From: Oscillospiraceae bacterium
GTDB taxonomy: Bacteria > Bacillota > Clostridia > Oscillospirales > Ruminococcaceae
Length of the DNA: 32,000 nt
NCBI GenBank assembly: GCA_018110905.1
Contig: JAGBAZ010000064.1
Span: forward strand, 63,249-95,248
Direction of reading: 5' to 3'
The notes beneath the pieces were generated by a model. That model was not told the DNA's origin. It did not search any database and saw only the letters and a program-made list of their open reading frames with translations. Below are positions 1,028-24,707 of the stretch, piece after piece; positions within the stretch are counted from its first letter, which is position 1; every line of letters begins with the position of its first letter. Made by a program: the position numbers and the translations under genes.

Positions 1028-1033
1028 AGCAGA

Positions 1034-1062
1034 GGGCGGCAATATAATTTGCCGCCCTTTCT
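1034..1062. terminator. bidirectional rho-independent terminator between convergent genes
   Basis: Stem GGGCGGC (1034-1040) / GCCGCCC (1051-1057) followed by TTTCT. It sits between the stop at 1027 (+) and the stop at 1077 (-). Confidence 0.6.
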
Positions 1063-1076
1063 AGTGATAAAAATAA

Positions 1077-2117
1077 CTAATATTCTTCTATATTACATTG
1101 ATCAGATAAATTTGCATATTCAGAAATCAGTTTTTCAATTTCATTAAGCAAGGCTTTCTTGTTGTTAAAACTTGTTTTTTCCATAATTTTAAAGTTTAAA
1201 CTTATAAGTCTCAACATAAATCCAATATCCCAATGCATATTATCGCTAAACATTTCGAGGTATTTATTTGTTGTTTTTATGTTGTGGTCAGAAGCAAATC
1301 TAAAACCAGATATTATATCACTTATTATTTCTCTATTTGTGTTGTCAAAGGAACTTAATAACTCCTGAACTTCTTCTTGAGTTTCTTTTTCCATTATAAT
1401 ATTATTTTTTTCTGAAATAGATAAAAATTTATGAGAATTAAGTAATTCTGTTGTTTCTTTATAAAGCTCCCTATTTTCATCGTCAGATATATCCGCTCTA
1501 TTTCCATGTTTCTCTATTTTTAAAGTGTAAAAGAGAATACAAAAAATAAATACATATGGAGAAATATCTATTTTTTTATCAAGTATATCATTGATTTTTT
1601 TCTCGGATAATTTTATTTTTATACTTTGAGCGTTGTCTTCAGCATTTTTTTTATGATACCAATGATTATATTCAATCGATTCATCATCATTCTCTTCTTG
1701 CGATAATGCTTCGTTTGCATTTATTCTCGAATGCAAATATGACCTTGTAATATTTAAACGAGTTAAAAGTTCATTAATATAATCAACTAATGTTTCCGGT
1801 ATCGGAATAAGACATTCAACTGTATCGTAATTAACAAACCATAATTGTTCGTCAATCTCTTTGGAAGTACATTTTATTTTTAAAGAATTATATATGCGTT
1901 CTGCGAGTTCTGTAGAATCGTTCTCTCCAGAAATAAACTGTAAGATTGAATATAGTTCTTTGGTGTCTATAGTCTGAATGTTTCCACTTTCTAACTTTGA
2001 AATAAAAGCAGGACTCTTGTTAATGTGTTTTGCGAGAAGCTTCGACTGAATTTTATTTTGTAATCGAATATTTCTAAGCGTTTCCGCAAGCTCATTTGTG
2101 ACAATTGCGCGTGGCAT
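1077..2117 (-). CDS. XRE-family HTH regulator with a ~270-aa C-terminal domain of unknown function
   Basis: N-terminus LAETLRNIRLQNKIQSKLLAKHINKSPAFISKLESGNIQ is a classic XRE/Cro-type HTH. I moved the start to ATG 2117 (MPRAIV) because GGGAGGG lies 5 nt upstream on the minus strand (2123-2129). The gene is divergent from the cyclase operon. No HEXXH peptidase motif was seen. Confidence 0.75.
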   Translation of the reverse strand: MPRAIVTNELAETLRNIRLQNKIQSKLLAKHINKSPAFISKLESGNIQTIDTKELYSILQFISGENDSTELAERIYNSLKIKCTSKEIDEQLWFVNYDTVECLIPIPETLVDYINELLTRLNITRSYLHSRINANEALSQEENDDESIEYNHWYHKKNAEDNAQSIKIKLSEKKINDILDKKIDISPYVFIFCILFYTLKIEKHGNRADISDDENRELYKETTELLNSHKFLSISEKNNIIMEKETQEEVQELLSSFDNTNREIISDIISGFRFASDHNIKTTNKYLEMFSDNMHWDIGFMLRLISLNFKIMEKTSFNNKKALLNEIEKLISEYANLSDQCNIEEY

Positions 2118-2183
2118 AGAATCCCTCCCATACATCAATTAACAACAATGTATTATATCATTTGCAAAACATAAATTCAACCG

Positions 2184-2255
2184 TTTTACTAAAATTTATT
2201 TAGAGTAAATTATTTTACTAAATTTATTGATTATTTTAAAAATATGTGTTATAAT
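2184..2255 (+). promoter_or_regulatory. sigma-A type promoter of the cyclase operon with two operator-like direct repeats
   Basis: TTGATT (2227-2232), 17 nt, TATAAT (2250-2255) with TG at -15/-14. Direct repeats TTTTACTAAAATTTATT (2184-2200) and TTTTACTAAATTTATT (2213-2228); the second abuts and overlaps the -35. Confidence 0.5.
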
Positions 2256-2305
2256 TTCATTCGAAGAATAATCATCATAAAATTCAAAAGAAAGCGGTGT
2301 AAAAC

Positions 2306-3667
2306 ATGAGGAAAGAAAAAGGCATTCACCTTTATATCAGCATTATAAATTTTAATGACATAATTTTACAGGAAGAATCTCAAACTGGAAATGTAATACA
2401 TTCCTTACATGCATTAGATACTTTTTTTACATCTATAGAACAATACGGTAAGAAAGTATCTCCCCAAGATTTTGTGATTGAAAAAATTACCGGATCGAGA
2501 CTGCATATTTATGTTTTAGGTGAACCTGATCCCGCTTTTCATGTGGTAAAAACCATATCATCATACGCACATAATCTCTCAAAATATATAAATAGTGATA
2601 TACCAAAATACAAATCCCTTGGGGATTTTAAAATACAAATCGGAGCTGATTACGGCAAATTCTATGAATTTGAGTTTGTTTCTAATGATAAATTCACCGA
2701 ACTAACCACTATTGGTTATGTTGCGAATTTTGCTGCAAAAATACAAGCTCTTTCAAAGCCTTCAAAACTCAGTATTTCTAAAAACATATTTGACACCTTG
2801 TCCGAAGATGAACAAAAGAAATACGAAAAAATTGAAAATAAAGCTATAGAAAAATATGGCCAAAAATATTTCTATTCTATACCGTTATCATCAGTTGAAT
2901 CCCCTCTTCATATTTCGGATGAAGATTTGGAATTTGCTAAAAAATATGCAAACAGCGATAACCTTTCTGACATCGAATTTACAAAAATCCGAAAACTTCT
3001 TAATTTTCAAAATCTAAGCAAAACACAATGCAAGGAATTGTACGGAATCCCTGTTTTTGCCGATGTTCGTGGTTTTACAACTTTGTTTAAAGAGGATGAC
3101 AGTAATCTTGAAGAAATGACAGAAACAACACAAAACATTCTTAAGGCAATGTATGGTGTAAGTACTGAAAACGGTGGTATTCATGTCCAATTTCAAGGAG
3201 ACCGTGAACTTTCTCTTTATCATAATATTCCTGAAAGCAATGTTTCTGGTTCTGTACATGCGGAGAAAAAATGTTTTAAAGAAGCTGTCATTGCGTCAAT
3301 GCGAATGATTGATGCAGTAAAACCCTATAATGTGCAAATTGGTATTGGTGAAGATTTTGGCAGGTTGTTTGCAACAAAAATCGGTGCTCGAGGAGAAAAA
3401 GATAATATTCTACTTGGAGAAACCATCATTGAAGCTGATAAAATGGAAGATAAATATGCCGGAGCAGATCAAATTGCCATATCGCAAAAGGTTTATTCCG
3501 GATTAGAAATAGAAGCTCCTGAACTTGCCGAACAATTTACAAAAAAAGATGACTATTATATCATCGCAATAGGACACAAACAATATTTGAGAAATGTTTC
3601 CAGCAACCAACAAACATATAACACTTCTCATAATAGTTACAATGGTGCTTGGGGGGATTTACAATAG
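2306..3667 (+). CDS. tandem class III nucleotidyl cyclase-homology-domain protein (degenerate N-terminal half, canonical C-terminal half)
   Basis: The C-terminal half has VFADVRGFTTLF (Asp at nt 3062-3064), VQFQGDRE (Asp at 3200-3202) and IGIGEDFGRLFATKIG..LLGETIIEADKME, the class III cyclase pattern. The N-terminal half has the same scaffold (IQIGADYGKFYEF..TTIGYVANFAAKIQ), but both metal-binding Asp positions are replaced (YISIINFND, ITGSRL). Confidence 0.7.
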   Translation: MRKEKGIHLYISIINFNDIILQEESQTGNVIHSLHALDTFFTSIEQYGKKVSPQDFVIEKITGSRLHIYVLGEPDPAFHVVKTISSYAHNLSKYINSDIPKYKSLGDFKIQIGADYGKFYEFEFVSNDKFTELTTIGYVANFAAKIQALSKPSKLSISKNIFDTLSEDEQKKYEKIENKAIEKYGQKYFYSIPLSSVESPLHISDEDLEFAKKYANSDNLSDIEFTKIRKLLNFQNLSKTQCKELYGIPVFADVRGFTTLFKEDDSNLEEMTETTQNILKAMYGVSTENGGIHVQFQGDRELSLYHNIPESNVSGSVHAEKKCFKEAVIASMRMIDAVKPYNVQIGIGEDFGRLFATKIGARGEKDNILLGETIIEADKMEDKYAGADQIAISQKVYSGLEIEAPELAEQFTKKDDYYIIAIGHKQYLRNVSSNQQTYNTSHNSYNGAWGDLQ

Positions 3668-4272
3668 CTAACGAACATAACACGACACACCAGGAAACTT
3701 CATGTTCCATAGATTGGAAATCGTATTACTGTAATGTAAAAAAAGATTTTCTTGAAATGAAAAAATACTATCCTTTTTCCTCTCTAATTATTCGTCCCAC
3801 TTCAACTCAAGAACTTGCTGAAATACAAGTTATCGCAGCAAATAAAAAGTTGATTGAATTGGTATGTGGAAAAAAAGAAGATTTTGTAGGAGATTATTCA
3901 AAAGAACTTCACATTATAGTTCCTATAAATTACCAGAAAGAAGGCTGCGAAGTATATGGAGCAAAGTGGTTTGACAAAACAAAGGTCAAAAGTAAACATA
4001 TTCATATGTTCCAAAATAATAGCGAAAAATACGGATTTCAACTGTGTGTAGGTGTTCCTCAATCTTTTTCTCTAATGAATAATGTTATTCTCGAAAATGT
4101 TAAAACGGCAGAGAATATGCTTATAGCATACGAACGAATTATGGCAGGAATGTCAAAACAATTTGATATGATTGCTTATTCTCATGGAGAAAAAGGGAAA
4201 AAAGAATTTGAAAAAAACAAATCAAAATATATTCCTGAAAGGCAAAAAGATGAAGAAACGAATTTTAGCTAA
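3649..4272 (+). CDS. hypothetical protein, possible E2/UBC-like fold (candidate Cys at nt 4045-4047)
   Basis: The ORF overlaps the cyclase stop (TTG 3649); an alternative ATG is at 3757. ELHIIVPINYQKEGCEVYGAKWF followed by KHIHMFQNNSEKYGFQLCVGVP resembles the UBC strand-flap plus HPN..G.lCl catalytic loop of prokaryotic E2-like proteins. The assignment is by eye only. Confidence 0.5.
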   Translation: MGGFTIANEHNTTHQETSCSIDWKSYYCNVKKDFLEMKKYYPFSSLIIRPTSTQELAEIQVIAANKKLIELVCGKKEDFVGDYSKELHIIVPINYQKEGCEVYGAKWFDKTKVKSKHIHMFQNNSEKYGFQLCVGVPQSFSLMNNVILENVKTAENMLIAYERIMAGMSKQFDMIAYSHGEKGKKEFEKNKSKYIPERQKDEETNFS

Positions 4273-4840
4273 AATAAAAAATAATAATGTTAATCAAGAT
4301 AATTCTAACAATAACATGGTTGAGCAATACAAATTTGTTTATGAGCAAGTAAAAAGTTGGATTGAAAACGCCGACAATAAAGTTAACATCTCTTGCGCAC
4401 TATTTTTTGGAATATTTACAGTTATCACTTTCCTTTCGGAAAAATGTATTGCTGTTCCAGAAAACTCTGTAGTTAATAAGTGTTTTGAAGGAATCTATAC
4501 CTTTTGTTTTGTTGCAAGTATAGTTTCAGCTTTTATTGCTTTGTTATATTATGCTTACTCAATTTTCCCCAATCTTAGTAGTAATGAAACTGATAGCAGC
4601 CTAAAAAGGTATCCAATATTTTTCGGCGATATTGCTTCTATGAGTGCAGAAGAATATAGAAATAAAATACAGAAGGGTACGGACTCTTTATTTGCTGACG
4701 AATTAATTCTTGAAACACATATGAACTCAAAAATTTGTTTGAACAAAATGAAAAGATATAGAATAGGGTTAATATTATCCCTTATTACAGTTGTTTTCTC
4801 AATGTTAAGTTTTGGGGCACATTTTATGATGTATAGATAG
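4250..4840 (+). CDS. 3-TM membrane protein, PycTM/DUF5706-like candidate effector
   Basis: I prefer ATG 4250 (GAAAGG upstream; 23-nt overlap with the previous gene) over the track start 4172. Layout: amphipathic helix ..VKSWIENADNKVN, TM1 ISCALFFGIFTVITFL, TM2 IYTFCFVASIVSAFIALLYYAYSIF, soluble ..MSAEEYRNKIQKG..LILETHMNSKICLNKMKRYR, TM3 IGLILSLITVVFSMLSF. This matches my memory of the Pycsar TM effector family. Confidence 0.6.
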   Translation: MKKRILAKIKNNNVNQDNSNNNMVEQYKFVYEQVKSWIENADNKVNISCALFFGIFTVITFLSEKCIAVPENSVVNKCFEGIYTFCFVASIVSAFIALLYYAYSIFPNLSSNETDSSLKRYPIFFGDIASMSAEEYRNKIQKGTDSLFADELILETHMNSKICLNKMKRYRIGLILSLITVVFSMLSFGAHFMMYR

Positions 4841-4897: not shown

Positions 4898-4926
4898 TTT
4901 ACAAAAACTGACATTAGTATTATAAT
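4898..4926 (+). promoter_or_regulatory. sigma-A type promoter of the TIR operon
   Basis: TTTACA (4898-4903), exactly 17 nt, TATAAT (4921-4926), located 50 nt upstream of ATG 4977. Confidence 0.6.
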
Positions 4927-4976: not shown

Positions 4977-7418
4977 ATGGCAGTTATGAAATGTAAAATG
5001 TGCGGGGGAGATCTTGAAATTGAGGAAGGCATGAGCGTTGCTGTCTGCGAATATTGCGGAACAAAGCAGACTGTTCCGACCCTCGATAACGAAAGAAAAA
5101 CCAGCCTTTTCGGCAGAGCCGGAAGGCTTTTGCGTGCGTGTGAATTTGACAAGGCCTCAGTGGTCTTCGGCGATATCGTTTCGGAATTTCCGGAAGAAGC
5201 CGAAGCTTATTGGGGCCTTTTGCTTTGCAAATACGGCGTTGAATACGTTGATGACCCGGCAACCGGAAAGAAAATTCCCACCTGCCACCGTCTTTCTTTC
5301 GAAAGCGTAATGGAAGACAGCGATTTTGAACAGGCTTGCGAAAATGCGGATTCCGTTGCAAGGGGAGTTTACCGCGAAGAGGCAAAATTCCTTGAAAATC
5401 TCCGCAAAAACGTAATCGAGGTTTCCAGCAAGGAAGAACCTTACGACGTTTTCATCTGCTATAAAGAAACCGATCCGAACGGCGACCGCACCATCGACAG
5501 CGTTATGGCGCAGGACGTTTATGATGCCCTTACCGAAAAAGGCCTTCGTGTTTTCTTTGCAAGAATCACCCTTGAGGATAAACTCGGAATGGAATATGAG
5601 CCTTATATTTTTGCGGCTCTCAACAGTGCAAAAGTCATGCTTGCAATCGGTACCGATTACGAGTATTTCAACGCTGTCTGGGTAAAGAACGAATGGAGCC
5701 GTTTCCTCAAGCTCATCGCAAAAGGCGAAAAGAAAGTGCTGATTCCTTGCTATAAGGATATCGACGCTTACGACATGCCGAAGGAATTCAAAAACCTTCA
5801 GGCGCAGGATATGGGTAAACTCGGATTCATGCAGGACCTTGTCCGTGGTGTTTGCAAAATTCTTGGAGTTGATGAGAAGAAAGAGGCTGTTGTTGAAAAG
5901 ACCGTTGTAAAAGAAACGGTTGTAAGCGAAAAAGTTATAAATGTTAGTACTTCAAAAGCGGAATCACTTGCAAAACGAGGTTTTATGGCTCTTGAAGATA
6001 GAGATTGGGAAAAAGCGAGAGAATATTTTAATGATTCACTTAATGAAGATGCGGAATATGCAATCGCATACCTTGGTCTTGATATGTGCACCAAATGTGT
6101 TTCGACGGATGAAAGATATGCTAGAATTCTTGATAAAAATAATAAAAATTATGTAAGAGCAAAAAAATTTGCCAAGGGAGCAGCATTAGAAAGAATTACA
6201 AAAATAGAAAAAGCAAATAGTGATTTTGTTGAAGAAAAAAGAAAAGCCGAAAAGAAGAAACAAGATGAAGAAAGAAGAAAGGCGGAAGAAAAAAATCAGA
6301 AGGAAAATATAATAAAAGCCAAGCTGAAAGAATATCTTTCTGATGCTTCTCTTTTGGGTAAATTTGAACACGATAAAAATATTGATTTAGAGATAGCTAA
6401 ACTGAGAGAAGATGCTGATTTATACAGAGACCTGTATTATTCGTTGATTAAATCAGAGGATGCAAAACGGAAATTTGATATGTCAAAAGAAAAAAACAGA
6501 CTAGAAACTCTGAAAGAAGAAAAATCCAAGCTTGGTTTCTTTGCTGGTAAGGAGAAAAAAAGACTTCAGAAAGAAATTGAAGAGACTGAAAATTTAGTGA
6601 AAGCTCTTAATTACAAAGAATCAGAAAGCAATGCACGAAAAGCTATTGCGGAAAAAGAAAAAGAAAAACAATCTCTAAAGAAAAGCACAGAAGAATTTAT
6701 TCTGTTTATGCAGCAGAATGATGTTGGAGCGGTAGTAAAAAAATATAACGATGATAGAATAAAAAAATATGAAAGCTATCTTCCAAATAAAGTCAGAGTA
6801 AATTGCTTTGACAGTATAATAATGGGAAAATATGTTGGTCAACCTATCGAATGGAAAATACTTGCCGTGGAAAATAATAAGGCATTACTTATAAGTAAAT
6901 ATGCGCTTGATGCACTTCCTTTTGATGAACGACTTTATGGAGATGTTTTTTGGGAAAATTGCAGTTTGAGGAAGTGGCTTAATAATACTTTCATTTCTTC
7001 TGCATTCACAGTAAAAGAACGCACATCAATTTTGCTAACAACAATTGATGAAACAAATCCAAGAAATTTTGGATTAATAAAAACCAACGATAGAATATTT
7101 CTTCTTAATAAAAGAGAAGCAGAAAAATATTTTTCTTCAGCAAAAGACAGAGATTGCGTAGCGACATCATATGCAAGATCTGTAATGCAATCAAAAGAAA
7201 ACTGGAGTCCATATGCCCCTAAATATTCTTCTCAAACGAGCTCTAATGGTTCGTGTTGGTGGTGGCTTAGATCAAATAATTGTGAAAGTTCTTATAGAGA
7301 TTCTTACGATTCTATTGAAATTGTACAAGGTGGATATATTGGTGATATGAGAAGTTTTCCGTCTACTTATCCAAATGGCGCAGTCCGCCCTGCTATGTGG
7401 ATAGACCTTGATGTTTGA
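4977..7418 (+). CDS. zinc-ribbon / TIR-domain protein, paralog A; C-terminal WWWLRS-motif domain
   Basis: RBS GAGGAGG 4962-4968. Zinc ribbon CKMCGG..x13..CEYCG; helical module EAEAYWGLLLCKYGVEYVDDP..PTCHR; TIR-like DVFICYKETD..ALNSAKVMLAIGT..AVWVKNEWSRF (Glu codon 239, nt 5691-5693). Then a K/E-rich coiled coil. The C-terminus has IEWKILAVENNKALLISKYAL..SLRKWLNN..CWWWLRS..VRPAMWIDL, which I believe is the family named DUF6273. Confidence 0.85.
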   Translation: MAVMKCKMCGGDLEIEEGMSVAVCEYCGTKQTVPTLDNERKTSLFGRAGRLLRACEFDKASVVFGDIVSEFPEEAEAYWGLLLCKYGVEYVDDPATGKKIPTCHRLSFESVMEDSDFEQACENADSVARGVYREEAKFLENLRKNVIEVSSKEEPYDVFICYKETDPNGDRTIDSVMAQDVYDALTEKGLRVFFARITLEDKLGMEYEPYIFAALNSAKVMLAIGTDYEYFNAVWVKNEWSRFLKLIAKGEKKVLIPCYKDIDAYDMPKEFKNLQAQDMGKLGFMQDLVRGVCKILGVDEKKEAVVEKTVVKETVVSEKVINVSTSKAESLAKRGFMALEDRDWEKAREYFNDSLNEDAEYAIAYLGLDMCTKCVSTDERYARILDKNNKNYVRAKKFAKGAALERITKIEKANSDFVEEKRKAEKKKQDEERRKAEEKNQKENIIKAKLKEYLSDASLLGKFEHDKNIDLEIAKLREDADLYRDLYYSLIKSEDAKRKFDMSKEKNRLETLKEEKSKLGFFAGKEKKRLQKEIEETENLVKALNYKESESNARKAIAEKEKEKQSLKKSTEEFILFMQQNDVGAVVKKYNDDRIKKYESYLPNKVRVNCFDSIIMGKYVGQPIEWKILAVENNKALLISKYALDALPFDERLYGDVFWENCSLRKWLNNTFISSAFTVKERTSILLTTIDETNPRNFGLIKTNDRIFLLNKREAEKYFSSAKDRDCVATSYARSVMQSKENWSPYAPKYSSQTSSNGSCWWWLRSNNCESSYRDSYDSIEIVQGGYIGDMRSFPSTYPNGAVRPAMWIDLDV

Positions 7419-7465
7419 ACCGAATAAATGTTTCTGAATTTTAACGATTGAATAGAGGTAATAAT

Positions 7466-9286
7466 ATGGGAAAATTTGTTATTGAATGTCCGAACTGCGG
7501 AAGATATGTTGAAGCCAAAACCGGCTTCTTCGCAAAAAAGAAAATTGACTGCGTTTGTGGTCATACAATCAACGTAAAAACCGAAAAATTCGCTTCCAAA
7601 GTCTGTGCTCATTGCGGAAACACCGTTGTTTTCGATCAGAGCAAAGGCGACGACGCAATCTGCCCGGTCTGCCATGAAAAAATCAATACACGGGAGGATA
7701 TGAACAACATCGCGGAATTTACCTGCCCTTCCTGCAACTGCAAACTTACCGCAGATAAATCCGCCGTAAGCTATACCTGTCCTCTTTGCGATACCGTAAT
7801 CGACGTTCAGGAAAGAATCGCAAAAGAAAACGTTAAAAACCAGGGCCTTGCAAGCGTAATCAAATACGAAGGCGACAACAACACCTTTGTATGGAAGCAC
7901 CCCATCGAGGACTTTAACCTCGGTTCCCAGCTTATCGTTCACGAATCCCAGGAAGCGATTTTCTTCCGCGACGGAAAAGCGCTCGACCTTTTCGGAGCGG
8001 GTCGCTATACCCTTGCAACCCAGAATATTCCGCTTCTGGAGGAACTTTATAAACTCCCCACCAATGCTGATGAGGTTTTCCATTCCGAGGTCTATTTCGT
8101 AAATATGACCACCCAGATGGGAATCAAATGGGGCACCGACAGCAAGGTAAGACTTTTTGACCCTGCTTCCGGCTTACATATCGAAATCGGCGCCTGCGGC
8201 AATTTCAGCCTCCGTGTTTCCGATTCCAGAAAGCTTCTTGTAAAACTTGTTGGCACTATGCCGGAATTCAACCAGCACGATGTTATGGGTGTTGAGCCTT
8301 TCGGAATCCAGGTTGTTGTGGGTAAATTCAAGGCTCTTGTTATGAACAAGGTCAAATCCAACCTTGCAAAAGTTATCAAAGAAAACGATATCAACATTCT
8401 TGAAATCGACGCATATATTGACCTTCTTTCCGAAAAACTCCGCGTTGTTATCAACGAAACCCTTGCGGAATACGGTCTTACCATGCCGGAATTCTTCATT
8501 ACTTCCGTTATGACCCCGGACGACGACCCCAACTACAGAAGACTTAAACAGCAGTTCGCCGACAGAACTCTTAAAGTTCGCGAGGAGGAAATCCGCAAAG
8601 CGGAAGCTGAAGCTGCCCACGCAAGAAAACTTGTTGAAGCACAGACCGAAGCACAGCTTAAAATTGTCGGTGCGCAGGGCGAAGCGGAAGCACTTAAGAT
8701 CCAGGCCGCTGCAGAAGCCGAAGCATACAAGGCACAGGCGTTTGCCGAAGCGGAAGAAATGCGAGCAAAAGGCTATACCTATCAGCAGGAAACCGCAAGA
8801 ATGGTCGGAATGGAAGCTATGCAGAACGGCATAACCGGCTCCGGAGATTTTGGCGGCGGTTCTTCCATGCTCGGCGATATTGCAGGCCTTGGAGTAACTC
8901 TCGGCGCCATGGGCGGCGTTATCGGCATGACCAAGGAAGCACTTGACCCAATCATGAAATCCACTTCCGAAATCGGCGCAGGCGTTGTTGCCGCCGCTGT
9001 TTCTGCGGAAGCACCCGCCGCACCGGCAAATGATACATGGGACTGCGCATGCGGTTGCAAAGGAATAAAATCCAAATTCTGCCCCGAATGCGGTGCAAAG
9101 AAACCCGAACCGCCGGCAGCATGGGATTGCCCGGCTTGCGGACTTAAAGGCATAACCTCAAAATTTTGTCCGGATTGCGGAACGAAGAAACCGGAAGCAC
9201 CTGCCGTTTGGAACTGCCCTGAATGCGGATGCCAGGGAATCACTTCCAAGTTCTGCCCGGACTGCGGACATAAAAGGGAGGGTTAA
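7466..9286 (+). CDS. SPFH/band-7 (YdjI-like) protein with three N-terminal and three C-terminal zinc ribbons
   Basis: Start moved to ATG 7466 (AGAGGT upstream; the track start 7448 is TTG). N-terminus has CPNCG..CVCG, CAHCG..CPVC and CPSC..CPLC. The core VIKYEGDNNTFVWKHPIEDFNLGSQLIVHESQEAIFFRDGKALDLFGAGRYTL is typical of the 'virion core protein-like' SPFH family. An Ala/Glu coiled coil and a Gly-rich segment follow, then three CxxC..CPxCG repeats. Confidence 0.85.
   Translation: MGKFVIECPNCGRYVEAKTGFFAKKKIDCVCGHTINVKTEKFASKVCAHCGNTVVFDQSKGDDAICPVCHEKINTREDMNNIAEFTCPSCNCKLTADKSAVSYTCPLCDTVIDVQERIAKENVKNQGLASVIKYEGDNNTFVWKHPIEDFNLGSQLIVHESQEAIFFRDGKALDLFGAGRYTLATQNIPLLEELYKLPTNADEVFHSEVYFVNMTTQMGIKWGTDSKVRLFDPASGLHIEIGACGNFSLRVSDSRKLLVKLVGTMPEFNQHDVMGVEPFGIQVVVGKFKALVMNKVKSNLAKVIKENDINILEIDAYIDLLSEKLRVVINETLAEYGLTMPEFFITSVMTPDDDPNYRRLKQQFADRTLKVREEEIRKAEAEAAHARKLVEAQTEAQLKIVGAQGEAEALKIQAAAEAEAYKAQAFAEAEEMRAKGYTYQQETARMVGMEAMQNGITGSGDFGGGSSMLGDIAGLGVTLGAMGGVIGMTKEALDPIMKSTSEIGAGVVAAAVSAEAPAAPANDTWDCACGCKGIKSKFCPECGAKKPEPPAAWDCPACGLKGITSKFCPDCGTKKPEAPAVWNCPECGCQGITSKFCPDCGHKREG
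9032..9286 (+). repeat. three tandem in-frame zinc-ribbon repeats (~28 aa each) at the SPFH C-terminus
   Basis: DTWDCACGCKGIKSKFCPECGAKKPEPP / AAWDCPACGLKGITSKFCPDCGTKKPEAP / AVWNCPECGCQGITSKFCPDCGHKREG. Confidence 0.9.
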
Positions 9287-9289: not shown

Positions 9290-10009
9290 ATGAAATTCAG
9301 TTTTAACGAACTTGGCAAAAAAGAAAAATCCGTTCTTCTTGTTTACGGAATTGTAGCGTTCATCTGTATTCTTGCATTCATCATTATTCCTTTCCCGAAA
9401 AGCGCTTCCAGCTGGCTTGCGCTTTTGTTCCTACTTGTTTCTTTCTGCGTAAGCCTTTATGCGATGAAACTTGCTTTTGAAAACGGAAAAGAGATCATCA
9501 GCAAAATTTACGGTTTTCCGATTTTCAAAATCAGCGTTTATTACGTTGCTGCCCAGGCAATTTTCAGCGTTCTTGTATGCGTTGTTGCAAGCTTTATCAG
9601 ACTGCCTTATTGGGTAACTCTTCTTGTTTCCGTAATCCTTCTCGGCGCAGCTGTTATCGGAATCGTTATTACCGATAACGCAAGGGATATTATCGAAGAT
9701 ACCGAAAAGAAAGACGTTCGTGATACAAAGAAAATCACTCTTTTCAAAATTGATATTGCCGGAATTGTTGACCGCTGCAAAGACGAAACCGCAAAGAAAG
9801 AACTTGAAAAACTTTCCGAAGCATTCAGATACAGCGACCCGGTTTCCAGCGATGCAACCAAGGAACTTGAGGACGAAATAACCGAAGAACTTGAGGAACT
9901 CAAAAAAGAAGTTGCCGAAAACGATGTGGAAGATATCATCGAAAAAGCAACCGAAATTTCCAACCTTCTTGCAGAAAGAAACAAAGTTTGCAAGGCGTTT
10001 AAGAAGTAA
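9290..10009 (+). CDS. 4-TM membrane protein with acidic helical cytoplasmic tail
   Basis: ATG 9290 lies 3 nt after the SPFH stop, preceded by GGGAGGG. Four hydrophobic helices (VLLVYGIVAFICILAFIIIPF, WLALLFLLVSFCVSLYAM, ISVYYVAAQAIFSVLVCVVASFI, YWVTLLVSVILLGAAVIGIVI) are followed by a D/E/K-rich tail. Confidence 0.8.
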   Translation: MKFSFNELGKKEKSVLLVYGIVAFICILAFIIIPFPKSASSWLALLFLLVSFCVSLYAMKLAFENGKEIISKIYGFPIFKISVYYVAAQAIFSVLVCVVASFIRLPYWVTLLVSVILLGAAVIGIVITDNARDIIEDTEKKDVRDTKKITLFKIDIAGIVDRCKDETAKKELEKLSEAFRYSDPVSSDATKELEDEITEELEELKKEVAENDVEDIIEKATEISNLLAERNKVCKAFKK

Positions 10010-10030
10010 TCAAACAAGGATGCGTTGTTT

Positions 10031-10477
10031 ATGACAGTAAAAGAAGCAAGCCACATTTTTAATCTTGATGAAAAAGAAATTAGAAAAAGAAAACAAGATG
10101 ATATGATTATAGGTGTAAGAAAAGACGGAAAGTTTATTTTTATACCAGATGATACAAAGATTATACCGTCTAAAATAGAAATTAAAGCTTTTTTGTTAGA
10201 AATAATTAAGTATAAAAATAATGATAAAATTGTGTTGGATAGAAGTTTATGCCCAAATAACGACACTTTAATTGCTATTGCAGAATATCTTTATAAAAAA
10301 GGCTTTATCGGTGAATTTGATTATTTTAATAACGCTTACAATTTTTTTGATGAAGTAAAACTCACCGACAAAGGTATAGAGTTCATATTTGAAAAAGAAT
10401 CACAAAAAATTGCCAAATACCAATTTTTTCCCATTCAACTGAACCCAAATAATTCTTTAGTAAGTTTAACATTGTAA
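10031..10477 (+). CDS. small protein with excisionase/MerR-type HTH-like N-terminus
   Basis: ATG 10031 (the track start 10025 is TTG). MTVKEASHIFNLDEKEIRKRKQDDMIIGVRKDGKFIFIPDD resembles the Xis-type winged HTH (..tvkEaa..lgvs..tirr....g.i....g....ip..). The gene is visibly more AT-rich than its flanks. Confidence 0.55.
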   Translation: MTVKEASHIFNLDEKEIRKRKQDDMIIGVRKDGKFIFIPDDTKIIPSKIEIKAFLLEIIKYKNNDKIVLDRSLCPNNDTLIAIAEYLYKKGFIGEFDYFNNAYNFFDEVKLTDKGIEFIFEKESQKIAKYQFFPIQLNPNNSLVSLTL

Positions 10478-10499: not shown

Positions 10500-13127
10500 A
10501 TGTCAGTTTTCAAATGTAAAATGTGCGGCGGCGACCTTGAGGTCACCGAAGGAATGAAAGTAGTCGAATGTGAATATTGCGGAACGACCCAGACCGTTCC
10601 GAACAGCGACAACGAAAAGAAAACGAATCTTTTCAACCGCGCAAACAGACTCAGAATCGCAAACGAATTTGACCGCGCGGCAGGCGTTTATGAAAATATC
10701 ATCTCCGAATTTCCCCGGGAAGCAGAAGCTTACTGGGGCCTTTGCCTTTGCAAATTCGGTATTGAATATGTAGATGACCCGAGAACGGCGGAAAAAATTC
10801 CAACCTGCCACAGAACTGCATTTGAAAGCATTTTTGACGACAGCAACTTCAAAACTGCCATTGAGCTTTCCGACCCGGTCGCAAAGAAAGTGTATAATTC
10901 CGAAGCAAGGATAATCGATACTCTTCAGCAGAACATTCTCACCATCGTAAACCGCGAAAAGCCTTTTGACGTTTTCATCTGCTACAAAGAAACTGATTCC
11001 AAAGGCGACAGAACCATGGACAGCGTTCTTGCACAGGATATCTATGATGCCTTGACCGCAAAAGGACTCAAGGTTTTCTTTGCACGCATAACTCTTGAAG
11101 ACAAGCTTGGTCAGGAATATGAGCCCTACATATTTGCGGCTTTGAACAGCGCAAAAATCATGCTTGCCATCGGCACCGCAGAAGAATACTACAATGCTGT
11201 CTGGGTCAAGAACGAATGGAGCAGATTTCTTTCTCTTATGAAGACCGACAGAAGCAAGGTGCTTATTCCTTGCTATAAAGATATCGACGCATACGATATG
11301 CCTGCTGAGTTCAGAAACCTCCAGGCACAGGATATGGGCAAACTCGGCTTTGTTCAGGATCTTACCAGAGGTGTCTGCAAAATCCTTGGGGTTGAGGAGA
11401 AGAAAGAAACTGTTGTTGAAAAAGTTATCGTAAAAGAAGTTATAAAAGAAAGAGTTGTTGGAGCAAGTACACAAAATATTCCGAACATAAATGTAAGCGG
11501 GATTCTTGATTTGGCGTTCGAAGATCTTAAAAATGGAAAATATTTTGAAGCGAGTAAATCTGCGGGAAAGGCGATTGGATTCGACCCGGCTAATGTCAGA
11601 GCGCATCTTTGCAAGCTTTGCGCAGAAATGAGAGTTAACGATATTGAAAAACTTTCCGAGTCGGAAAAAGGTAATATAGAAGATAGCGATTATTACAAAA
11701 ATATACTTTGCATAGCTGATGATGATCTTAAAGAAAAATTAAAAAAACAAGCAAAAATACAAAAAGCAAGATTTGAAGAAAGAAAGCGCAAAGAAGAGGA
11801 ACGCATCGCGGGAGAAAAAAGAAAAGAACAAGAAGAAATACACATTTTTAATGAAAAATGGGAAATAGAAAAAGTTTCTAAGTTTGAAACAGCTGATAAT
11901 TTATTAAGAAATGCAAAAAGGCTGTCAGATTATGATAAAATCAAAGAACTTTTTGTCGGATATGAAGAAATGGACGAAGTAAAAAATCTTTTAGAAGAAG
12001 TGTCCGCACAAAAAAGAGAATGTTACAGAAAGATTGTAAAACATGTTGAAAGTCAGCTTTCTTTTGGCAATCCACATATCGTTTTTCTTAATAAAGGACA
12101 TGCTTATGTTTCAGGTAAATCAACAACTGCGGCATGTGTTAAAAAAAGTGAACTGTGGAATTTAGACAGCATTTGTTTTGTGCTTGACCATTATGATAAT
12201 AATCAGCAGTGGCCGGAATTTGGATTTATCGGCTTTAAAAAGACTGGTGAAATCACTCAGACTAAAGATTCTGATAATGTGAATTCTGAATATAAAAAAA
12301 GTCCGGATTATGATTTTTCGGACTGTACTGAGATAAAAAAAGTATTGGTTTTTGAAGAAAAAGACTATATTACTCTTAAAATCGATGGAACTGTAGTAAA
12401 AAAAGGCGACTATAGCGAAAAAATTTCTCAGTGGAAAGATATTATCGATATCTCGACAAGCGGTAAACATATTGTAGGTTTAAAATCTGATGGTACTGTT
12501 GTTGCAGTAGGAGAAAACGGCAGTAAACAATGTAATGTTTCTGAATGGAAAGATATAGTTGCAATTGAAACTTCTGAAGAGAATACTTTAGGTGTTAAAC
12601 GAAACGGAACTGTTGTGCAAACAGGAAATAAATATGATATTTCAGATTGGAGAGATATCGTAATTGCTGCTAGTGAACGTGATGGTGATATAACAGCACT
12701 TCAAAGCAATGGGGAATTGGTGCATAAAAATAGAAACCAGTCTCGTTATAATTTTAAAAAAGGAAAGATTGCGGGAGTTTTTGCGAATAACTTTAATACA
12801 GTTGTAATTTATTTTGACGGAAGTGCCGAAATTAAAGGAATAGACAACAATAAGCAATGTAACTGTTGGGCGTGCAAGATATTTGATGATGCGGAAGAGT
12901 TTGCGGAACAAAGAGAAAAAATGCTGAAAGAACGGTATGAAAAGAAAATGAGAGAAAAAGCTGAACAGGAAGCCGCCCGCAAAGCTAAAATTGAGTCTCT
13001 TGAAAAAGAAAAAGCAACCCTTGAAGCGGAACTCTCCAACATAAAAGGCCTTTTCAGCGGTGGCAAAAAAGCAAAAGTTGAAGCAAGAATTGCGGAAATA
13101 GAAAAAGAACTCCAAACCTTGAAATAA
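10500..13127 (+). CDS. zinc-ribbon / TIR-domain protein, paralog B; C-terminal RCC1-like repeats
   Basis: RBS GCGGAGG. It has the same N-terminal chassis as paralog A (Glu codon 239 at 11214-11216). The C-terminus carries beta-propeller-type repeats (HIVGLKSDGTVVAVGENGSKQCNVSEWKDIVAIE.., LGVKRNGTVVQTGNKYDISDWRDIV..) and a terminal coiled coil. Confidence 0.85.
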   Translation: MSVFKCKMCGGDLEVTEGMKVVECEYCGTTQTVPNSDNEKKTNLFNRANRLRIANEFDRAAGVYENIISEFPREAEAYWGLCLCKFGIEYVDDPRTAEKIPTCHRTAFESIFDDSNFKTAIELSDPVAKKVYNSEARIIDTLQQNILTIVNREKPFDVFICYKETDSKGDRTMDSVLAQDIYDALTAKGLKVFFARITLEDKLGQEYEPYIFAALNSAKIMLAIGTAEEYYNAVWVKNEWSRFLSLMKTDRSKVLIPCYKDIDAYDMPAEFRNLQAQDMGKLGFVQDLTRGVCKILGVEEKKETVVEKVIVKEVIKERVVGASTQNIPNINVSGILDLAFEDLKNGKYFEASKSAGKAIGFDPANVRAHLCKLCAEMRVNDIEKLSESEKGNIEDSDYYKNILCIADDDLKEKLKKQAKIQKARFEERKRKEEERIAGEKRKEQEEIHIFNEKWEIEKVSKFETADNLLRNAKRLSDYDKIKELFVGYEEMDEVKNLLEEVSAQKRECYRKIVKHVESQLSFGNPHIVFLNKGHAYVSGKSTTAACVKKSELWNLDSICFVLDHYDNNQQWPEFGFIGFKKTGEITQTKDSDNVNSEYKKSPDYDFSDCTEIKKVLVFEEKDYITLKIDGTVVKKGDYSEKISQWKDIIDISTSGKHIVGLKSDGTVVAVGENGSKQCNVSEWKDIVAIETSEENTLGVKRNGTVVQTGNKYDISDWRDIVIAASERDGDITALQSNGELVHKNRNQSRYNFKKGKIAGVFANNFNTVVIYFDGSAEIKGIDNNKQCNCWACKIFDDAEEFAEQREKMLKERYEKKMREKAEQEAARKAKIESLEKEKATLEAELSNIKGLFSGGKKAKVEARIAEIEKELQTLK

Positions 13128-13145: not shown

Positions 13146-15584
13146 ATGGCAGTATTCAAATGTAAAATGTGCGGCGGTGACCTTGAGGTCACCGAAGGAA
13201 TGAAAGTAGTCGAATGCGATTTCTGCGGAACGACTCAGACTGTTCCCACTGTAAAAGATGAAAATATTCAGAGCCTTTTCAACAGGGCAAATACTCTTCG
13301 TATGAAGTCCGAATTTGACAAAGCGGAAGCAATTTATGAAAAAATCGTGCAAGCAAAAGAGGACGAATGCGAGGCATATTGGGGTATAATTCTCTGCCGC
13401 TATGGTATTGAATATGTGGAGGATCCTAAAACTTTCAAGCGTATCCCCACCTGCCACAGAACTTCCTACGATTCCGTAATTGCGGACGAAGACTATAAAT
13501 CCGCAATAAAATATGCCGATCTCGTCCAGAGAATCGTTTATGAAAACGAGGCAAAGGAAATTGACCGTATTCAAAGGGAGATTCTCGAACTTTCCCAAAA
13601 AGAAGAGCCTTACGACGTTTTTATCTGCTATAAAGAAACGGATTCTGCCGGAAGACGCACTGTTGACAGTGCCATCGCCAACGATATTTACTACCAGCTT
13701 ACCCAGGAAGGCTATAAGGTTTTCTATGCCGCTATCACCCTTGAGGACAAGCTGGGTTCTGCTTATGAACCCTGCATTTTTGCCGCGCTCAATTCCGCAA
13801 AAGTTATGCTTGCCATTGGTACAAAACCGGAATATTTTAATGCCGTCTGGGTGAAAAACGAATGGTCAAGATATCTCCGCCTTATGAAAAACGACCGCAC
13901 AAAACTGCTTATTCCTTGCTATAAGGATATGGATGCCTATGAACTTCCGGACGAATTTGCGCATCTTCAGGCGCAGGATATGGGCAAAATCGGTTTTATC
14001 AACGACATTGTCCGCGGAATCAAAAAGGTTATTGTAAAAGATGAGCAGAAAGCACCAGCTTTTACTGCCGCCGCAGTAGCATCTGCACCTGCAGGAAATG
14101 CTGCACCTCTTCTCAAACGCGCATTCATATTCCTTGAAGATGAGGAATGGGAAAGTGCTGATGAATACTTTGAAAAAGTTCTGGATATGGATCCGGAATG
14201 TGCAGAAGCATATCTTGGAAAACTTTGCGTTGAGCTTGAAGTTACTGATATTGATGAGCTTTCAAACATTAATGATGATTTTGAAAACAGAGCAAATTTC
14301 AAGAAGGCTATTCGTTTTGCAACCGGTGAAGCAAAAAAGAAAATTGATGCGATAATTGAAAACAAAAAGAACAGAATAGAAGAAGAAAAACGCAAAAAAG
14401 AAGAGCAGCTTGCGGAGAAAAAACGCCTTGAGCAGGAAAAAAAGAAAAAAGAGAAGTACTTATTTTTGATTGACAATGTAGAAACATCAACAAATTTTGA
14501 CAGTTTGGAAAATCTTTATCACAGACTGCTTGCTTTGGGAGATTATTTGGATGCGCCCAAATATGCAGAAGAATGCCGTATAAAGATGGAAGAATATGAA
14601 GTCATAGACCGAATTTGGAAAGAATATTCCGAAGCATATGCCGAATATAACTCTGCAAGAAAGGCTCTAGATAACGTTAAAGAAAAATTTTGCAGTGTTG
14701 AAAGTAATTTGACTATCTGGATAAGCGAATTTGAAACTGTTTCTGATGCACGTAATAAATTATTGGATATCGATAAAGAAATTACAGAAACATATAACAG
14801 AATAGTTTTTCTTGCAAAAGAAAAGGAAAATCTTGGAGTTTTTGCTTTTTCAAAAAAGAAAGAAATTTCCGATGAAATTGAAAGACTGGAAGCAAAAAGA
14901 CAAAGGTTGGAATGTGACAGGAAAAAATATAATTCTATAGTTACATGTTCCAAAACAGAAGAAGAATTTAGAGAAAAAATAAAAACTGCAGAGGAAAGCA
15001 AACAATCTGTAGAAAATGAACAGGCTTTTCTTCAGGAAAAAGAAAAAGAGTTCAAAAATAGTTTCGATATTGTAACTGAAAAAGTACTTGATAAAAATGT
15101 ACTTATTAAATTATTTAATTACCAAAATGCAGGTGATGTTCTGCTTTTGAATGAGAGAATAAAGGAATATATTTCGAACGATGAAGAACTTTCCGGACAA
15201 ATAAATACAAACATGGATTATGTGGATGCGGTATCTGATATAGAAGAAATATATTTTGAAGCCTGTGCTCTTCTCAGCAATACCCGTATAAGTAATTCTG
15301 CCGAGCTGGCGCTTGAAAAATTCATGTCTATAAAAGGATATAAGGATTCCAAATTAAAAATTGAAGAATGCAAGAAAAAACTTGGAAAGAACACCGTAAA
15401 ATCAATAAATAAATCCAATACACATAAAAGTATTACGAACGAAAAACGCTGTCCATATTGTGGCTTTTCCTTAGATAATAAAGTGGAGAAATTATTGGAT
15501 CTTTATTTGGAGGGGGAAGATGTTAAATGTCCGGAATGCGGCAGGCTCTTTGATGATGATATAATGATGAAAATTTTAGATTAA
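13146..15584 (+). CDS. zinc-ribbon / TIR-domain protein, paralog C; long coiled coil and C-terminal zinc ribbon
   Basis: RBS GGAGGA; 18-nt gap after paralog B. Same chassis (Glu codon 239 at 13860-13862). The C-terminal half is predicted helical/coiled coil and ends with CPYCG..x22..CPECG. Confidence 0.85.
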   Translation: MAVFKCKMCGGDLEVTEGMKVVECDFCGTTQTVPTVKDENIQSLFNRANTLRMKSEFDKAEAIYEKIVQAKEDECEAYWGIILCRYGIEYVEDPKTFKRIPTCHRTSYDSVIADEDYKSAIKYADLVQRIVYENEAKEIDRIQREILELSQKEEPYDVFICYKETDSAGRRTVDSAIANDIYYQLTQEGYKVFYAAITLEDKLGSAYEPCIFAALNSAKVMLAIGTKPEYFNAVWVKNEWSRYLRLMKNDRTKLLIPCYKDMDAYELPDEFAHLQAQDMGKIGFINDIVRGIKKVIVKDEQKAPAFTAAAVASAPAGNAAPLLKRAFIFLEDEEWESADEYFEKVLDMDPECAEAYLGKLCVELEVTDIDELSNINDDFENRANFKKAIRFATGEAKKKIDAIIENKKNRIEEEKRKKEEQLAEKKRLEQEKKKKEKYLFLIDNVETSTNFDSLENLYHRLLALGDYLDAPKYAEECRIKMEEYEVIDRIWKEYSEAYAEYNSARKALDNVKEKFCSVESNLTIWISEFETVSDARNKLLDIDKEITETYNRIVFLAKEKENLGVFAFSKKKEISDEIERLEAKRQRLECDRKKYNSIVTCSKTEEEFREKIKTAEESKQSVENEQAFLQEKEKEFKNSFDIVTEKVLDKNVLIKLFNYQNAGDVLLLNERIKEYISNDEELSGQINTNMDYVDAVSDIEEIYFEACALLSNTRISNSAELALEKFMSIKGYKDSKLKIEECKKKLGKNTVKSINKSNTHKSITNEKRCPYCGFSLDNKVEKLLDLYLEGEDVKCPECGRLFDDDIMMKILD

Positions 15585-19605: not shown

Positions 19606-20396
19606 TCAAGCACCGGATTCAAAAATGTTGCGCAGTTCTTTGAGTTTTTCAGCTGCATTCTGTTTTCGTATGTTTGCATTGTTGATTTTTACAGGAACAC
19701 AAAGCTCCAGAATTCGGTCATATATCCTTGCTTTGGCAAGATTCTCAGGATTTTGGATTTCATCAAGGGTGAGGTTAGTTGTGACAATTAGAGGCTTTTT
19801 GCTGCGGTAGCGGCTGTCGATCACGCTGAAAACCTGTTCCAGCGCGAATTCGGAATTTCGCTCGATTCCAAGGTCGTCTATTATCAACAGTTCACATTTT
19901 ACTAAGGATTCAAGATATCGGTTTCGTTCTTCAGAAAAGATTCCGGTCAAGGTGTTGATGATTTTTGAAAAGTTGGTCATAACAACCGGGATACCTTTTT
20001 CAATCAGGGCGTTTGCAATGCAGCCGGCGAAAAAGGTTTTTCCGGTTCCGACGTTTCCCCAGATGAGCAGTCCGAGATTTTTCTCCTTCATTTCCGCCCA
20101 GCGGTCAACGTAAGTTTTTGCCTTTTCCATTTCCGGGTTATAGCCTTTGTCGTTTTCAAAGGTGTATTCGGAAAACGCTCGTCGGAAAGTCCGCTTTTCC
20201 TCAAAGCCAGAACCCTTTGACGAAAATCCCGCTTCTTTTCTTTTCGGCGCTGTTCGTTAATTCTGTCAAGCTGGCATCGGCAACTTATGGGAACAAGCTG
20301 TTCCCGGTCGAAGATCGAAATTCTCAGCTGCCGGGGAGTGCCGCAGTTTTTGCAATAAACAATTCCGTCCTCGTTAAGATATTCATCGGGTTTCAT
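19606..20396 (-). pseudogene. DnaC/IstB-like AAA+ helper ATPase with N-terminal zinc ribbon, split by a -1 frameshift
   Basis: The upstream ORF (MKPDEYLNEDGIVYCKNCGTPRQ..LRKSGLSDERF) and the downstream ORF (..[YTFENDKGYNPE]MEKAKTYVDRW..LLIWGNVGTGKTF..LLIIDDLG) are consecutive parts of one protein. The frames join if the A4 run at 20172-20175 (T4 on the coding strand) were 5 nt long. The start ATG 20396 overlaps the upstream stop as ATGA and is preceded by AAGGAGG. Confidence 0.7.
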
Positions 20397-20845
20397 AAGC
20401 TTTCGTCCTCCTTGCATTCATAAATTCTTTTATAATCTTTATCTTTGTTATTGCTTATATAGGGTGGGGAAGGTTTTCTTTCCGTCAAAGGGATAATATT
20501 CTGTCTTTCAGTAAAAGGCGGGATTTTTACATAAATCCTGTTTGTAAGTCCGCCGCCCCTGCGCTTTCTTGCGATAAGGTCAATGCCTTCCAAAGCCCGC
20601 AAAGAGCTTTTTACGGTCATTTCGCTTTTGCCGATAACAGTTGCCAGTTCCTTGAGAGAAAAGGAAACAAAGGCGTTTCCACAGTCGTCAATCCATTTTT
20701 CGCTTTTGAGCGAAAGCCTTGCTCTGTCGAGCAATAAGCAATAAAGGATTTTTGCGGTTTCGTTTATCCGGCGTTCGCTGATCAGGAATTTAGGGAAGAA
20801 CATATACGGAGGAAAGACCGTTTCTTTTGTGATAAAATTGTTCAT
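20393..20845 (-). CDS. RepA_N-type replication initiator / winged-helix protein
   Basis: ..PKFLISERRINETAKILYCLLLDRARLSLKSEKWIDDCGNAFVSFSLKELATVIGKSEMTVKSSLRALEGIDLI.. matches the RepA_N pattern (l..ls..Ak.lY.lL.dr..lS..n.w.De.G..y..f...el). RBS GAAGGAGAGG. Confidence 0.7.
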   Translation of the reverse strand: MNNFITKETVFPPYMFFPKFLISERRINETAKILYCLLLDRARLSLKSEKWIDDCGNAFVSFSLKELATVIGKSEMTVKSSLRALEGIDLIARKRRGGGLTNRIYVKIPPFTERQNIIPLTERKPSPPYISNNKDKDYKRIYECKEDESL

Positions 20846-20869
20846 AACGTCCTCTCCTTCGTACTTGTT

Positions 20870-21235
20870 TTATTCGCCGAGAAAATCCCAGTCAAAGTTT
20901 TCTTCGGGTTTGGATTTTTCAGGAGGAGGGGATGAGGAGCTGTTTATTACGGCGGCACAGCCGGAGAGAAAAAAAGGAAGGGATTTTTCAATGGAACTTT
21001 CAACGGAAGAAACTATTCGTTCGATAAATTTTTCTTCCTTTTCTCTTGTTTCAAGATAAGGATCATTTTCGCTTCGGTAGTATCTTTCAAAGAAATATAC
21101 AATAGCTATTGAAACAGCGTTGCTGTATGATTTGAATTTCTTTTTATCCATCGTTTGAAGATATTGCCATGCTTTCTTTTGAATTTCTTTTCCAAGATTG
21201 AAGCGAATATTTGTGGTTTTAACTTCGTTTTTCAT
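20870..21235 (-). CDS. hypothetical protein, ParR-like by position (possible RHH N-terminus)
   Basis: Its start overlaps the parM stop as ATGA (21232-21235). The N-terminus TTNIRFNLGKEIQKKAWQYL resembles a ribbon-helix-helix strand-helix. The function is inferred from position only. Confidence 0.45.
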   Translation of the reverse strand: MKNEVKTTNIRFNLGKEIQKKAWQYLQTMDKKKFKSYSNAVSIAIVYFFERYYRSENDPYLETREKEEKFIERIVSSVESSIEKSLPFFLSGCAAVINSSSSPPPEKSKPEENFDWDFLGE

Positions 21236-22155: not shown

Positions 22156-22251
22156 TTTATAACCTCCGTTCATTTTTTTGATTTGATGTTTTGCTTAGGA
22201 TTTGATTCGGTACCGTTTTTTTGAAAACGGTGCCTTTTTCTTTGCAAATTC

Positions 22252-22307
22252 ATTCTAACAAAACAAAAGAGAAACTACATTGAGCGGCTTTTGAGCGAAA
22301 ATTGAGC
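22252..22307 (-). promoter_or_regulatory. parM-operon promoter with three 11-bp-phased GCTCAA repeats (parC/operator candidate)
   Basis: Minus strand reads GCTCAAttttcGCTCAAaagccGCTCAAtg, then 20 nt, then TAGAAT (22252-22257) preceded by TGT. Hexamers start at + coordinates 22280, 22291 and 22302, spaced 11 nt. Confidence 0.5.
22278..22307. repeat. left arm of a perfect 30-bp inverted repeat
   Basis: CATTGAGCGGCTTTTGAGCGAAAATTGAGC is the exact reverse complement of 24778-24807. Confidence 0.95.
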
Positions 22308-22345
22308 AAAAAACAGCTTGTGCAAATTTTGCACAAGCTGTTTTA
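22308..22345 (-). terminator. rho-independent terminator of the STAND gene
   Basis: Stem ACAGCTTGTGC (22313-22323) / GCACAAGCTGT (22331-22341), followed on the minus strand by a T run (A run at 22307-22312 on +). It lies 17 nt past the stop at 22362. Confidence 0.75.
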
Positions 22346-22361
22346 AAATAGAATTTTGTTG

Positions 22362-24671: not shown

Positions 24672-24707
24672 AAAATCCTCCCTTCTCAAAAACTGTATTC
24701 TAAGGAA

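Follow-up and report, generated by a model that had tools for sequence, protein, structure and literature searches.

What does a small gene without a recognised family do between the cyclase and the effector of a bacterial defence operon? The question is raised by a 32,000-nucleotide stretch of DNA from an Oscillospiraceae bacterium (GenBank assembly GCA_018110905.1, contig JAGBAZ010000064.1, positions 63,249 to 95,248 of the forward strand), which was analysed as a whole and is referred to here as the window. Close to its left end, three overlapping genes encode a class III nucleotide cyclase (PycC), a small protein which we call E2L, and an effector with three transmembrane (TM) segments (PycTM), and the operon is faced by a divergently transcribed gene for a regulator of the XRE family. 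All open reading frames (ORFs) that an initial annotation, made from the letters alone, had assigned to this operon and to the divergent gene are present at the positions it gave (Table 1). Our answer is that the locus encodes a pyrimidine cyclase system for antiphage resistance (Pycsar) with an additional component, E2L, which may act on a conserved tail of the cyclase.

Pycsar reportedly consists of PycC plus PycTM, and both proteins are found here. The cyclase matches the PADLOC model PycC (PDLC00765) over its full length (E 6.8e-35, aa 5-423), and its C-terminal half matches Pfam Guanylate_cyc (E 9e-12, 45.4 bits against a cut-off of 21.9, aa 250-420). The effector matches PycTM of Pfam (E 2.5e-10, 41.2 bits against a cut-off of 27.2) as well as PycTM of PADLOC (E 1e-25), and has three hydrophobic segments (about aa 47-66, 81-106, and 171-194), the first of which is preceded by the motif ENADNK. 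Because the profiles of both PycC and PycTM are matched, the Pycsar assignment of the operon is solid; the initial annotation was right to take the first protein for a cyclase, the third for a relative of PycTM, and the two together for the Pycsar layout. PycC is read as a pseudo-heterodimer, that is, a tandem class III cyclase of which one catalytic half is intact. In an alignment of 16 orthologues (A4), FADVRGFT and QGDRE, the motifs with the metal-binding Asp residues, are retained in the C-terminal half (aa ~248-420), where D253, R255, G298, and D299 are invariant, and the N-terminal half (aa ~5-190) is degenerate, without the metal-binding Asp pair, its other positions being still conserved. 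This tandem architecture is not unusual, and is seen too in the annotated uridylate cyclase PycC of a Pycsar locus of P. aeruginosa, the gene of which adjoins pycTIR and the product of which aligns with both halves of the protein described here (aa 6-397). Related Pycsar-like clades reportedly use UTP, GTP, or ATP (bioRxiv 10.64898/2026.08.12.744502).

The three genes occur together far beyond this locus, and the cassette recurs in about 100 independent loci of gut and rumen Clostridia. A scan of one genome per species gave 18 E2L loci, nearly all of them assigned to Clostridia of the gut or rumen (including Butyrivibrio sp. INlla14 and Coprococcus sp. OM04-5BH). Of these genome loci, 16 have upstream DNA, and each of the 16 carries PycC immediately upstream of E2L; PycTM was detected behind E2L by phmmer in 11 genome loci, and a similar 185-205-aa ORF with three TM segments is present in five further ones, where the three ORFs scanned all match PADLOC PycTM. 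Among 80 metagenome loci, which were found via the cyclase, essentially all with room on the contig keep the order PycC, E2L, PycTM, and the most distant E2L members (18-33% identity) keep the same context. E2L, a small cytosolic protein, is always encoded between PycC and PycTM, and starts inside the end of pycC or a few nucleotides after it; it is an obligate, translationally coupled third gene of the Pycsar pair. In the window, the overlaps reported before are present, with the TTG start of E2L lying 19 nt inside pycC and the PycTM gene (ATG 4250) overlapping the E2L stop by 23 nt. Neither an E1 (ubiquitin-activating) nor a JAB domain was found near E2L by Pfam scans of its neighbours in the window (the XRE gene, PycC, PycTM, and a TIR protein) and in related loci.

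TIR and STAND genes elsewhere in the window give the cassette a defence-type context. In the compared locus L019 (L-numbers are labels of the compared loci), an AbiLi-like ATPase and an AbiLii-like protein are encoded directly upstream of the cassette (L019:3753-5649), and similar ORF pairs lie upstream of it in L003, L012, L013, L014, and L016, the PADLOC scan having been made on L019. These pairs fit a defence-island setting, on which a predicted role of the cassette in phage protection rests. In two independent assemblies, PycC and E2L are fused into one ORF by a 1-nt deletion after the YNKAWG codons (L091:4001-5869 and L017:107-1198). The L017 copy carries large deletions and is pseudogene-like, and since it is otherwise decayed, the fusion is weak evidence.

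E2L itself is labeled a hypothetical protein in the source databases. It has no match in PADLOC, NCBIfam, or Pfam (E up to 10), although the Pfam set used misses genuine proteins of E2-type cyclic-oligonucleotide-based antiphage signaling (E2-CBASS) too and its negative does not cover PF26395. No sequence match was obtained in the PDB, either with the single protein or with a profile, and no E2L was found by tblastn against plasmids. At 90% identity, the homologues group into 115 clusters. When 1.84 billion representative proteins were searched with a profile, only 88 clusters (50% identity) were returned, which are stand-alone proteins of ~170-230 aa, apart from short fragments and two weak matches in much longer proteins, and no bridge to any larger family was obtained. 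Six residues are invariant among 35 diverse members, P42, G99, H119, C133, Y161, and H179, of which H119, C133, and H179 are encoded at 4003-4005, 4045-4047, and 4183-4185, respectively. Cys100 was considered as a catalytic residue and rejected because it is not conserved in distant members. Gene callers are split on the start of E2L between TTG 3649 (207 aa) and ATG 3757 (171 aa). A helix at aa 23-40, which is conserved and confidently modeled, sits upstream of ATG 3757, and this favors the long form.

An AlphaFold2 model of E2L built on 48 sequences (predicted local distance difference test, pLDDT, 85; predicted template modeling score, pTM, 0.80) begins with a helix and continues with four strands, which have a short helical insert, and with a loop and hairpin; a short and then a long helix close it. 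This is the order of elements of the UBC fold of E2 (ubiquitin-conjugating) enzymes. When this model was compared with the PDB by Foldseek, the top 50 matches were all E2 or ubiquitin E2 variant (UEV) proteins, with probabilities up to 0.90, among them the UEV domains of TSG101 and Vps23. In BFVD, ranks 1-3 and 5 were E2s of giant viruses, and a protein named "Type II CBASS E2" held rank 8. In E2 enzymes, the HPN motif and the catalytic Cys occupy the place where E2L has the invariant H119-x13-C133, and C133 comes directly before the short and the long helix in the model. An E2-like fold of E2L is probable on this modeling, not established.

The cyclase partner carries a feature of its own, a conserved C-terminal tail that was newly noted in this analysis. 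The C-termini of E2L-linked cyclases have a variable polar linker and then the motif Y-[N/T]-x-A-[W/Y], which 65 of 68 distinct tails possess; behind it stand another 1-12 variable residues, and in 54 of the 65 its x is Gly. The three distant exceptions end in ...NPW.., ...KPW.., or ...YYGVH... The codons of the tail vary synonymously across loci, and at least 15 loci in which E2L begins behind the pycC stop (e.g., L004, L010, L015, L064-L072) retain the motif. The start of E2L lies in the same few codons of the cyclase across loci, in a frame that varies. The tails of tandem PycC proteins without E2L are unrelated and lack the motif, in a comparison with two proteins, from plasmids of P. aeruginosa and Moraxella, the search for PycC homologues having given only close relatives.

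The divergent regulator belongs to the XRE family by its helix-turn-helix (HTH), which matches Pfam HTH_3 (E 6.6e-6, 26.5 bits against a cut-off of 23) at aa 21-68 of the 353-aa ORF and is followed by a helical C-terminal domain of ~270 aa. Its homologues make up more than 231 clusters of about 347 aa and begin at the position of ATG 2117, which is therefore the likely start. In an AlphaFold2 model (pLDDT 85), only the HTH matches structures of the PDB (controller proteins, ClgR, and the N-terminal domain of CapH). The protein was also considered as an ImmA-like fusion, which was rejected as no HExxH motif was found on reading its sequence. With its N-terminal HTH, large C-terminal domain, divergent promoters, and repeated operators, the arrangement resembles that of Stl-type and controller-protein XRE repressors, which are autoregulated; unlike in the Stl type, the C-terminal domain here has no confident structural match in the PDB (TM-scores to Stl and PrgX of about 0.2-0.4).

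Repeats of the form TTTTACTAAA(A)TT stand at 2184 and 2213 with an inverted AGAGTAAA between them, and the last copy reaches the -35 of the operon promoter, as the initial annotation had noticed. Taken alone, the promoter and repeat matches in such an AT-rich window are not above chance, and the evidence for operators is therefore carried by conservation across loci. The intergenic regions align despite unrelated downstream operons, sharing two TTTTACTnAA, the inverted AGAGTAAA, a -35 TTGA, and an extended -10. Three operator half-sites align upstream of the E2-CBASS operons in L109, L110, and L113, and related sites are present in L107. An identical XRE protein accompanies the cassette at all six contig places listed, among 18 contigs, and a homologue of 55% identity is divergent to another PycC-E2L-PycTM cassette (L107). 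Further homologues are divergent to an operon with SAVED, CD-NTase, and E2-CBASS genes (70% identity; L109-L112), to one with Sa_NUDIX, CD-NTase, and E2-CBASS genes (65%; L113-L118), and to a further CD-NTase operon (55%). As a core Pycsar component, the XRE gene was rejected since it is missing from most E2L-Pycsar loci, and for the same reason it is taken as an optional layer. On these alignments, the gene and its putative operators are a portable, optional regulatory unit, newly noted here, which flanks E2-CBASS operons too. A basic, conserved ORF of 57 aa (MATNPPKGDGHRNG...) lies between the XRE homologue and the E2-CBASS operon in L109-L118 (e.g., L113:5663-5836, minus strand), and an unrelated Cys-rich ORF of 73 aa lies between regulator and operon in L107; the window has neither of these small ORFs.

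Taking these features together, we think it somewhat better than an even chance that the locus is an XRE-repressed, three-gene Pycsar abortive-infection system ("E2-Pycsar") in which E2L acts on the tail of PycC. E2L would be a highly diverged enzyme of the E2 fold, the invariant Cys133 of which, with His119 and His179, would act on the cyclase. It would recognize the tail ...Y-N-G-A-W and trim it or capture it covalently with no E1, and this processing or capture would set or gate the activity of PycC. Upon infection, PycC would make a cyclic mononucleotide, which would activate PycTM, and the resulting membrane damage would kill the infected cell. The XRE protein would bind the TTTACTnAA operators, which span both divergent promoters, and keep the operon low, repressing both promoters until a signal arrives; its C-terminal domain is a candidate sensor. 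A precedent for the proposed action of E2L on the cyclase tail is E2-CBASS, where the lone E2 removes a C-terminal extension of the CD-NTase and, without an E1, becomes joined covalently to the C-terminus of that enzyme, first by a thioester and next by an isopeptide link (PMC12948482).

Several observations weigh against this proposal. The fold matches of E2L in the PDB are below significance (best E 0.0099, TM-scores 0.3-0.5), and those to viral E2s in BFVD are all weak. By hhalign, E2L reached a probability of only ~0.5% against six eukaryotic E2s and against an 11-sequence E2-CBASS profile, compared with 81.6% for the positive control of E2-CBASS against eukaryotic E2s; the non-significant alignment to E2-CBASS does place H119 and C133 opposite the His and Cys conserved there. 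The similarity of E2L to E2 enzymes is thus seen in the predicted fold only, without support from sequence profiles, and the term E2-like of the initial annotation stands for the best fold matches in two structure libraries and falls short where significance and profiles are concerned. In the tail, the residue after the Trp is Gly in 34 and Arg in 19 of the 65 cases, and no glycine is invariant; the conserved C-terminal Gly of the E2-CBASS synthase type was not found in these 65 tails, so ubiquitin-like chemistry at a C-terminal Gly is not directly transferable. The DNA of the tail often holds the start of E2L (ATG or TTG within AAT-GGN or GCN-TGG) or a Shine-Dalgarno-like TGGGGAGAA, and some of the conservation could therefore be at the nucleotide level. 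The comparison with cyclases that lack E2L covers just two tails. The XRE gene, as described above, is missing beside most E2L-Pycsar loci, and the fused PycC-E2L allele may be a pseudogene.

Among the alternatives, the one that survives best takes E2L for a non-catalytic, UEV-like adaptor or sensor, which would bind the tail and/or a phage protein and control PycC allosterically, with no covalent chemistry. The UEV domains among the fold matches, the missing E1 and JAB genes, the missing terminal glycine, and the failure of profile searches to link E2L to any active E2 family all agree with such a role, but Cys133, His119, and His179 stay invariant down to 18% identity, which is typical of catalytic residues and not of a binding surface, and we hold the adaptor to be unlikely, if the least unlikely of the three. 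The second, which we consider improbable, makes E2L a new Cys/His hydrolase, for example a peptidase that removes an autoinhibitory tail from PycC, its resemblance to E2 being convergent or an artefact of modeling. A motif followed by variable trailing residues does resemble a processing site, and the profiles give no E2 signal though their control works and the fold matches are below significance; nevertheless, E2 or UEV proteins fill all 50 top places in the PDB and lead the named matches in BFVD, and both the distance from His to Cys and the placement ahead of the long helix are as in E2 enzymes. Least probable of all is that the conserved tail is a by-product of the gene overlap, serving as start or ribosome-binding site of E2L, and that E2L acts elsewhere, for instance as an antidote or assembly factor of PycTM, for although E2L starts, in differing frames, at ATGs contained in AAT-GGN and GCA-TGG, TGGGGAGAA is similar to a Shine-Dalgarno sequence, and E2L also overlaps the PycTM gene, the amino-acid motif is kept through synonymous codon changes and without overlap in the loci listed above, and the N-terminus of E2L is variable and poorly modeled.

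The preferred reading, an E2L that acts on the cyclase tail, leads to a broader one which we put forward only tentatively and would not expect to hold in full: E2L may represent a new E2-fold family that captures or trims a class III cyclase independently of E1 through a Trp-centered, non-glycine tail, under a portable XRE cassette that serves both Pycsar and CBASS. Such chemistry and such recognition would set it apart from every ubiquitin-like system described so far.

How this locus relates to known systems can be told from its layout. As in Pycsar, a PycC-type class III cyclase adjoins a PycTM effector with three TM segments in a defence-island or mobile-element setting, and the tandem cyclase architecture matches that of the annotated P. 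aeruginosa enzyme; unlike in Pycsar, there is an obligate third gene between cyclase and effector, a YNxAW tail, and, in this element, a dedicated XRE repressor. With E2-CBASS (type II "short"), it shares a single small protein, here of a predicted E2-like fold, beside the signal-making enzyme with neither E1 nor JAB, a signaling enzyme with a special C-terminal region, and the same XRE regulator family with the same operators. It differs from E2-CBASS in that the synthase is a class III cyclase instead of a CD-NTase, the order is cyclase, E2L, effector, E2L has no detectable sequence relationship to the E2 of that system, and the tail centers on Trp with no conserved terminal Gly. No relatives of E2-CBASS were found in the viral-contig scan. 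E2L-Pycsar looks like the Pycsar counterpart of these "E2-only" CBASS systems.

The initial annotation had further stated that ubiquitin-type components are known only with CD-NTases. This is out of date, because one article (PMC11601596) cites as known a "Type II Pycsar", which has a JAB peptidase and a protein in which E2 and E1 are fused, and the "Pycsar-like-4" cyclases have been described as a clade with linked E2-like genes (bioRxiv 10.64898/2026.08.12.744502). Partners of E2 type are thus already known for Pycsar-like cyclases, and the stand-alone E2L system is a variant of them. Those systems share with the present locus a Pycsar-type cyclase with a ubiquitin-system-like partner that is presumed to modify or regulate the cyclase; their partners are described as an E2 to which E1 and/or an inactive JAB is fused, frequently accompanied by a JAB peptidase or by WYL regulators. 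Unlike these, E2L (~185 aa) stands alone, with neither an E1 nor a JAB in its vicinity, is paired with PycTM, and occurs in Clostridia. In the searchable literature, we found no stand-alone E2L family, strict pairing with PycTM, Trp-centered tail, or XRE cassette shared with E2-CBASS.

Table 1. Features of the XRE-Pycsar module, in positions of the window.
Feature	Position	Strand	Remarks
Hairpin, GC-rich, likely terminator	1033-1058		10 pairs and a T run
XRE gene	1077-2117	-	346 aa from ATG 2117; ORF reaches TTG 2138 (353 aa)
XRE promoter-like site	2152-2180	-	TTGAAT-17-TATAAT with upstream TG; TTCAA element kept in aligned intergenic regions
Candidate operator	2184-2229		Two direct TTTTACTAAA(A)TT and one inverted AGAGTAAA
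Operon promoter-like site	2227-2255	+	TTGATT-17-TATAAT with upstream TG (extended -10); kept in alignment A5
PycC, tandem class III cyclase	2306-3667	+	453 aa; PADLOC PycC, Pfam Guanylate_cyc
PycC tail-motif codons, Y445-N-G-A-W449	3638-3652	+	Followed by four variable residues, GDLQ
E2L, middle gene	3649-4272	+	207 aa from TTG 3649; alternative ATG 3757
PycTM, effector with three TM segments	4250-4840	+	196 aa from ATG 4250; Pfam PycTM, PADLOC PycTM

On the left, the GC-rich hairpin is the likely edge of the module, and separates tnpV (656-1027) from the 3' end of the XRE gene. On the right, a gene for a TIR-DUF6273 protein follows PycTM; it was considered as a part of the system and rejected because it has a strong promoter-like site of its own (4898-4926) and does not recur behind PycTM on the operon strand in the genome loci, where a relative near the cassette was seen only in L018, on the opposite strand and ~2 kb downstream. 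The GC content of 1077-4840 is 0.302 against a window median of 0.388, and this is the most AT-rich stretch of such length in the window, in agreement with the visibly AT-rich module of the initial annotation.

An integrative mobile element with many defence genes seems to end on the right within the window. A TIR_2 domain (aa 158-280) is common to four paralogues of 810-875 aa (4977-7418, 10500-13127, 13146-15584, and 15609-18224), some of which have weak TPR-like matches or none; the C-terminus is DUF6273 in two, RCC1-like in one, and without an assignment in one. Two genes (7448-9286 and 9290-10477) lie between the paralogue genes, and an SPFH/Band-7 protein with several zinc ribbons is interleaved with the paralogues. 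No PADLOC match was obtained for the TIR_2 paralogues and the interleaved SPFH/Band-7 protein, and the group may be an uncharacterised TIR defence cluster. Further genes, in 19606-27386 and 28358-31516, are those of an IstB-like ATPase, an actin-like ParM, a STAND NTPase that has TPR repeats and is encoded on the minus strand (22362-24689), and a large serine recombinase (25797-27386); they adjoin rpsB, tsf, and an RnfC-like gene.

The E2L partner and the cyclase tail are two direct handles on how Pycsar cyclases stay inactive and are then switched on. If E2L does act on the tail, E2-only regulation would reach an unrelated cyclase fold and a non-glycine recognition motif, which would point to "E2 plus signaling enzyme" as a control module of bacterial immunity that is general and can be exchanged. 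In gut Firmicutes, the XRE cassette would add a layer of transcriptional control that moves together with E2-type CBASS and Pycsar operons, which share it.

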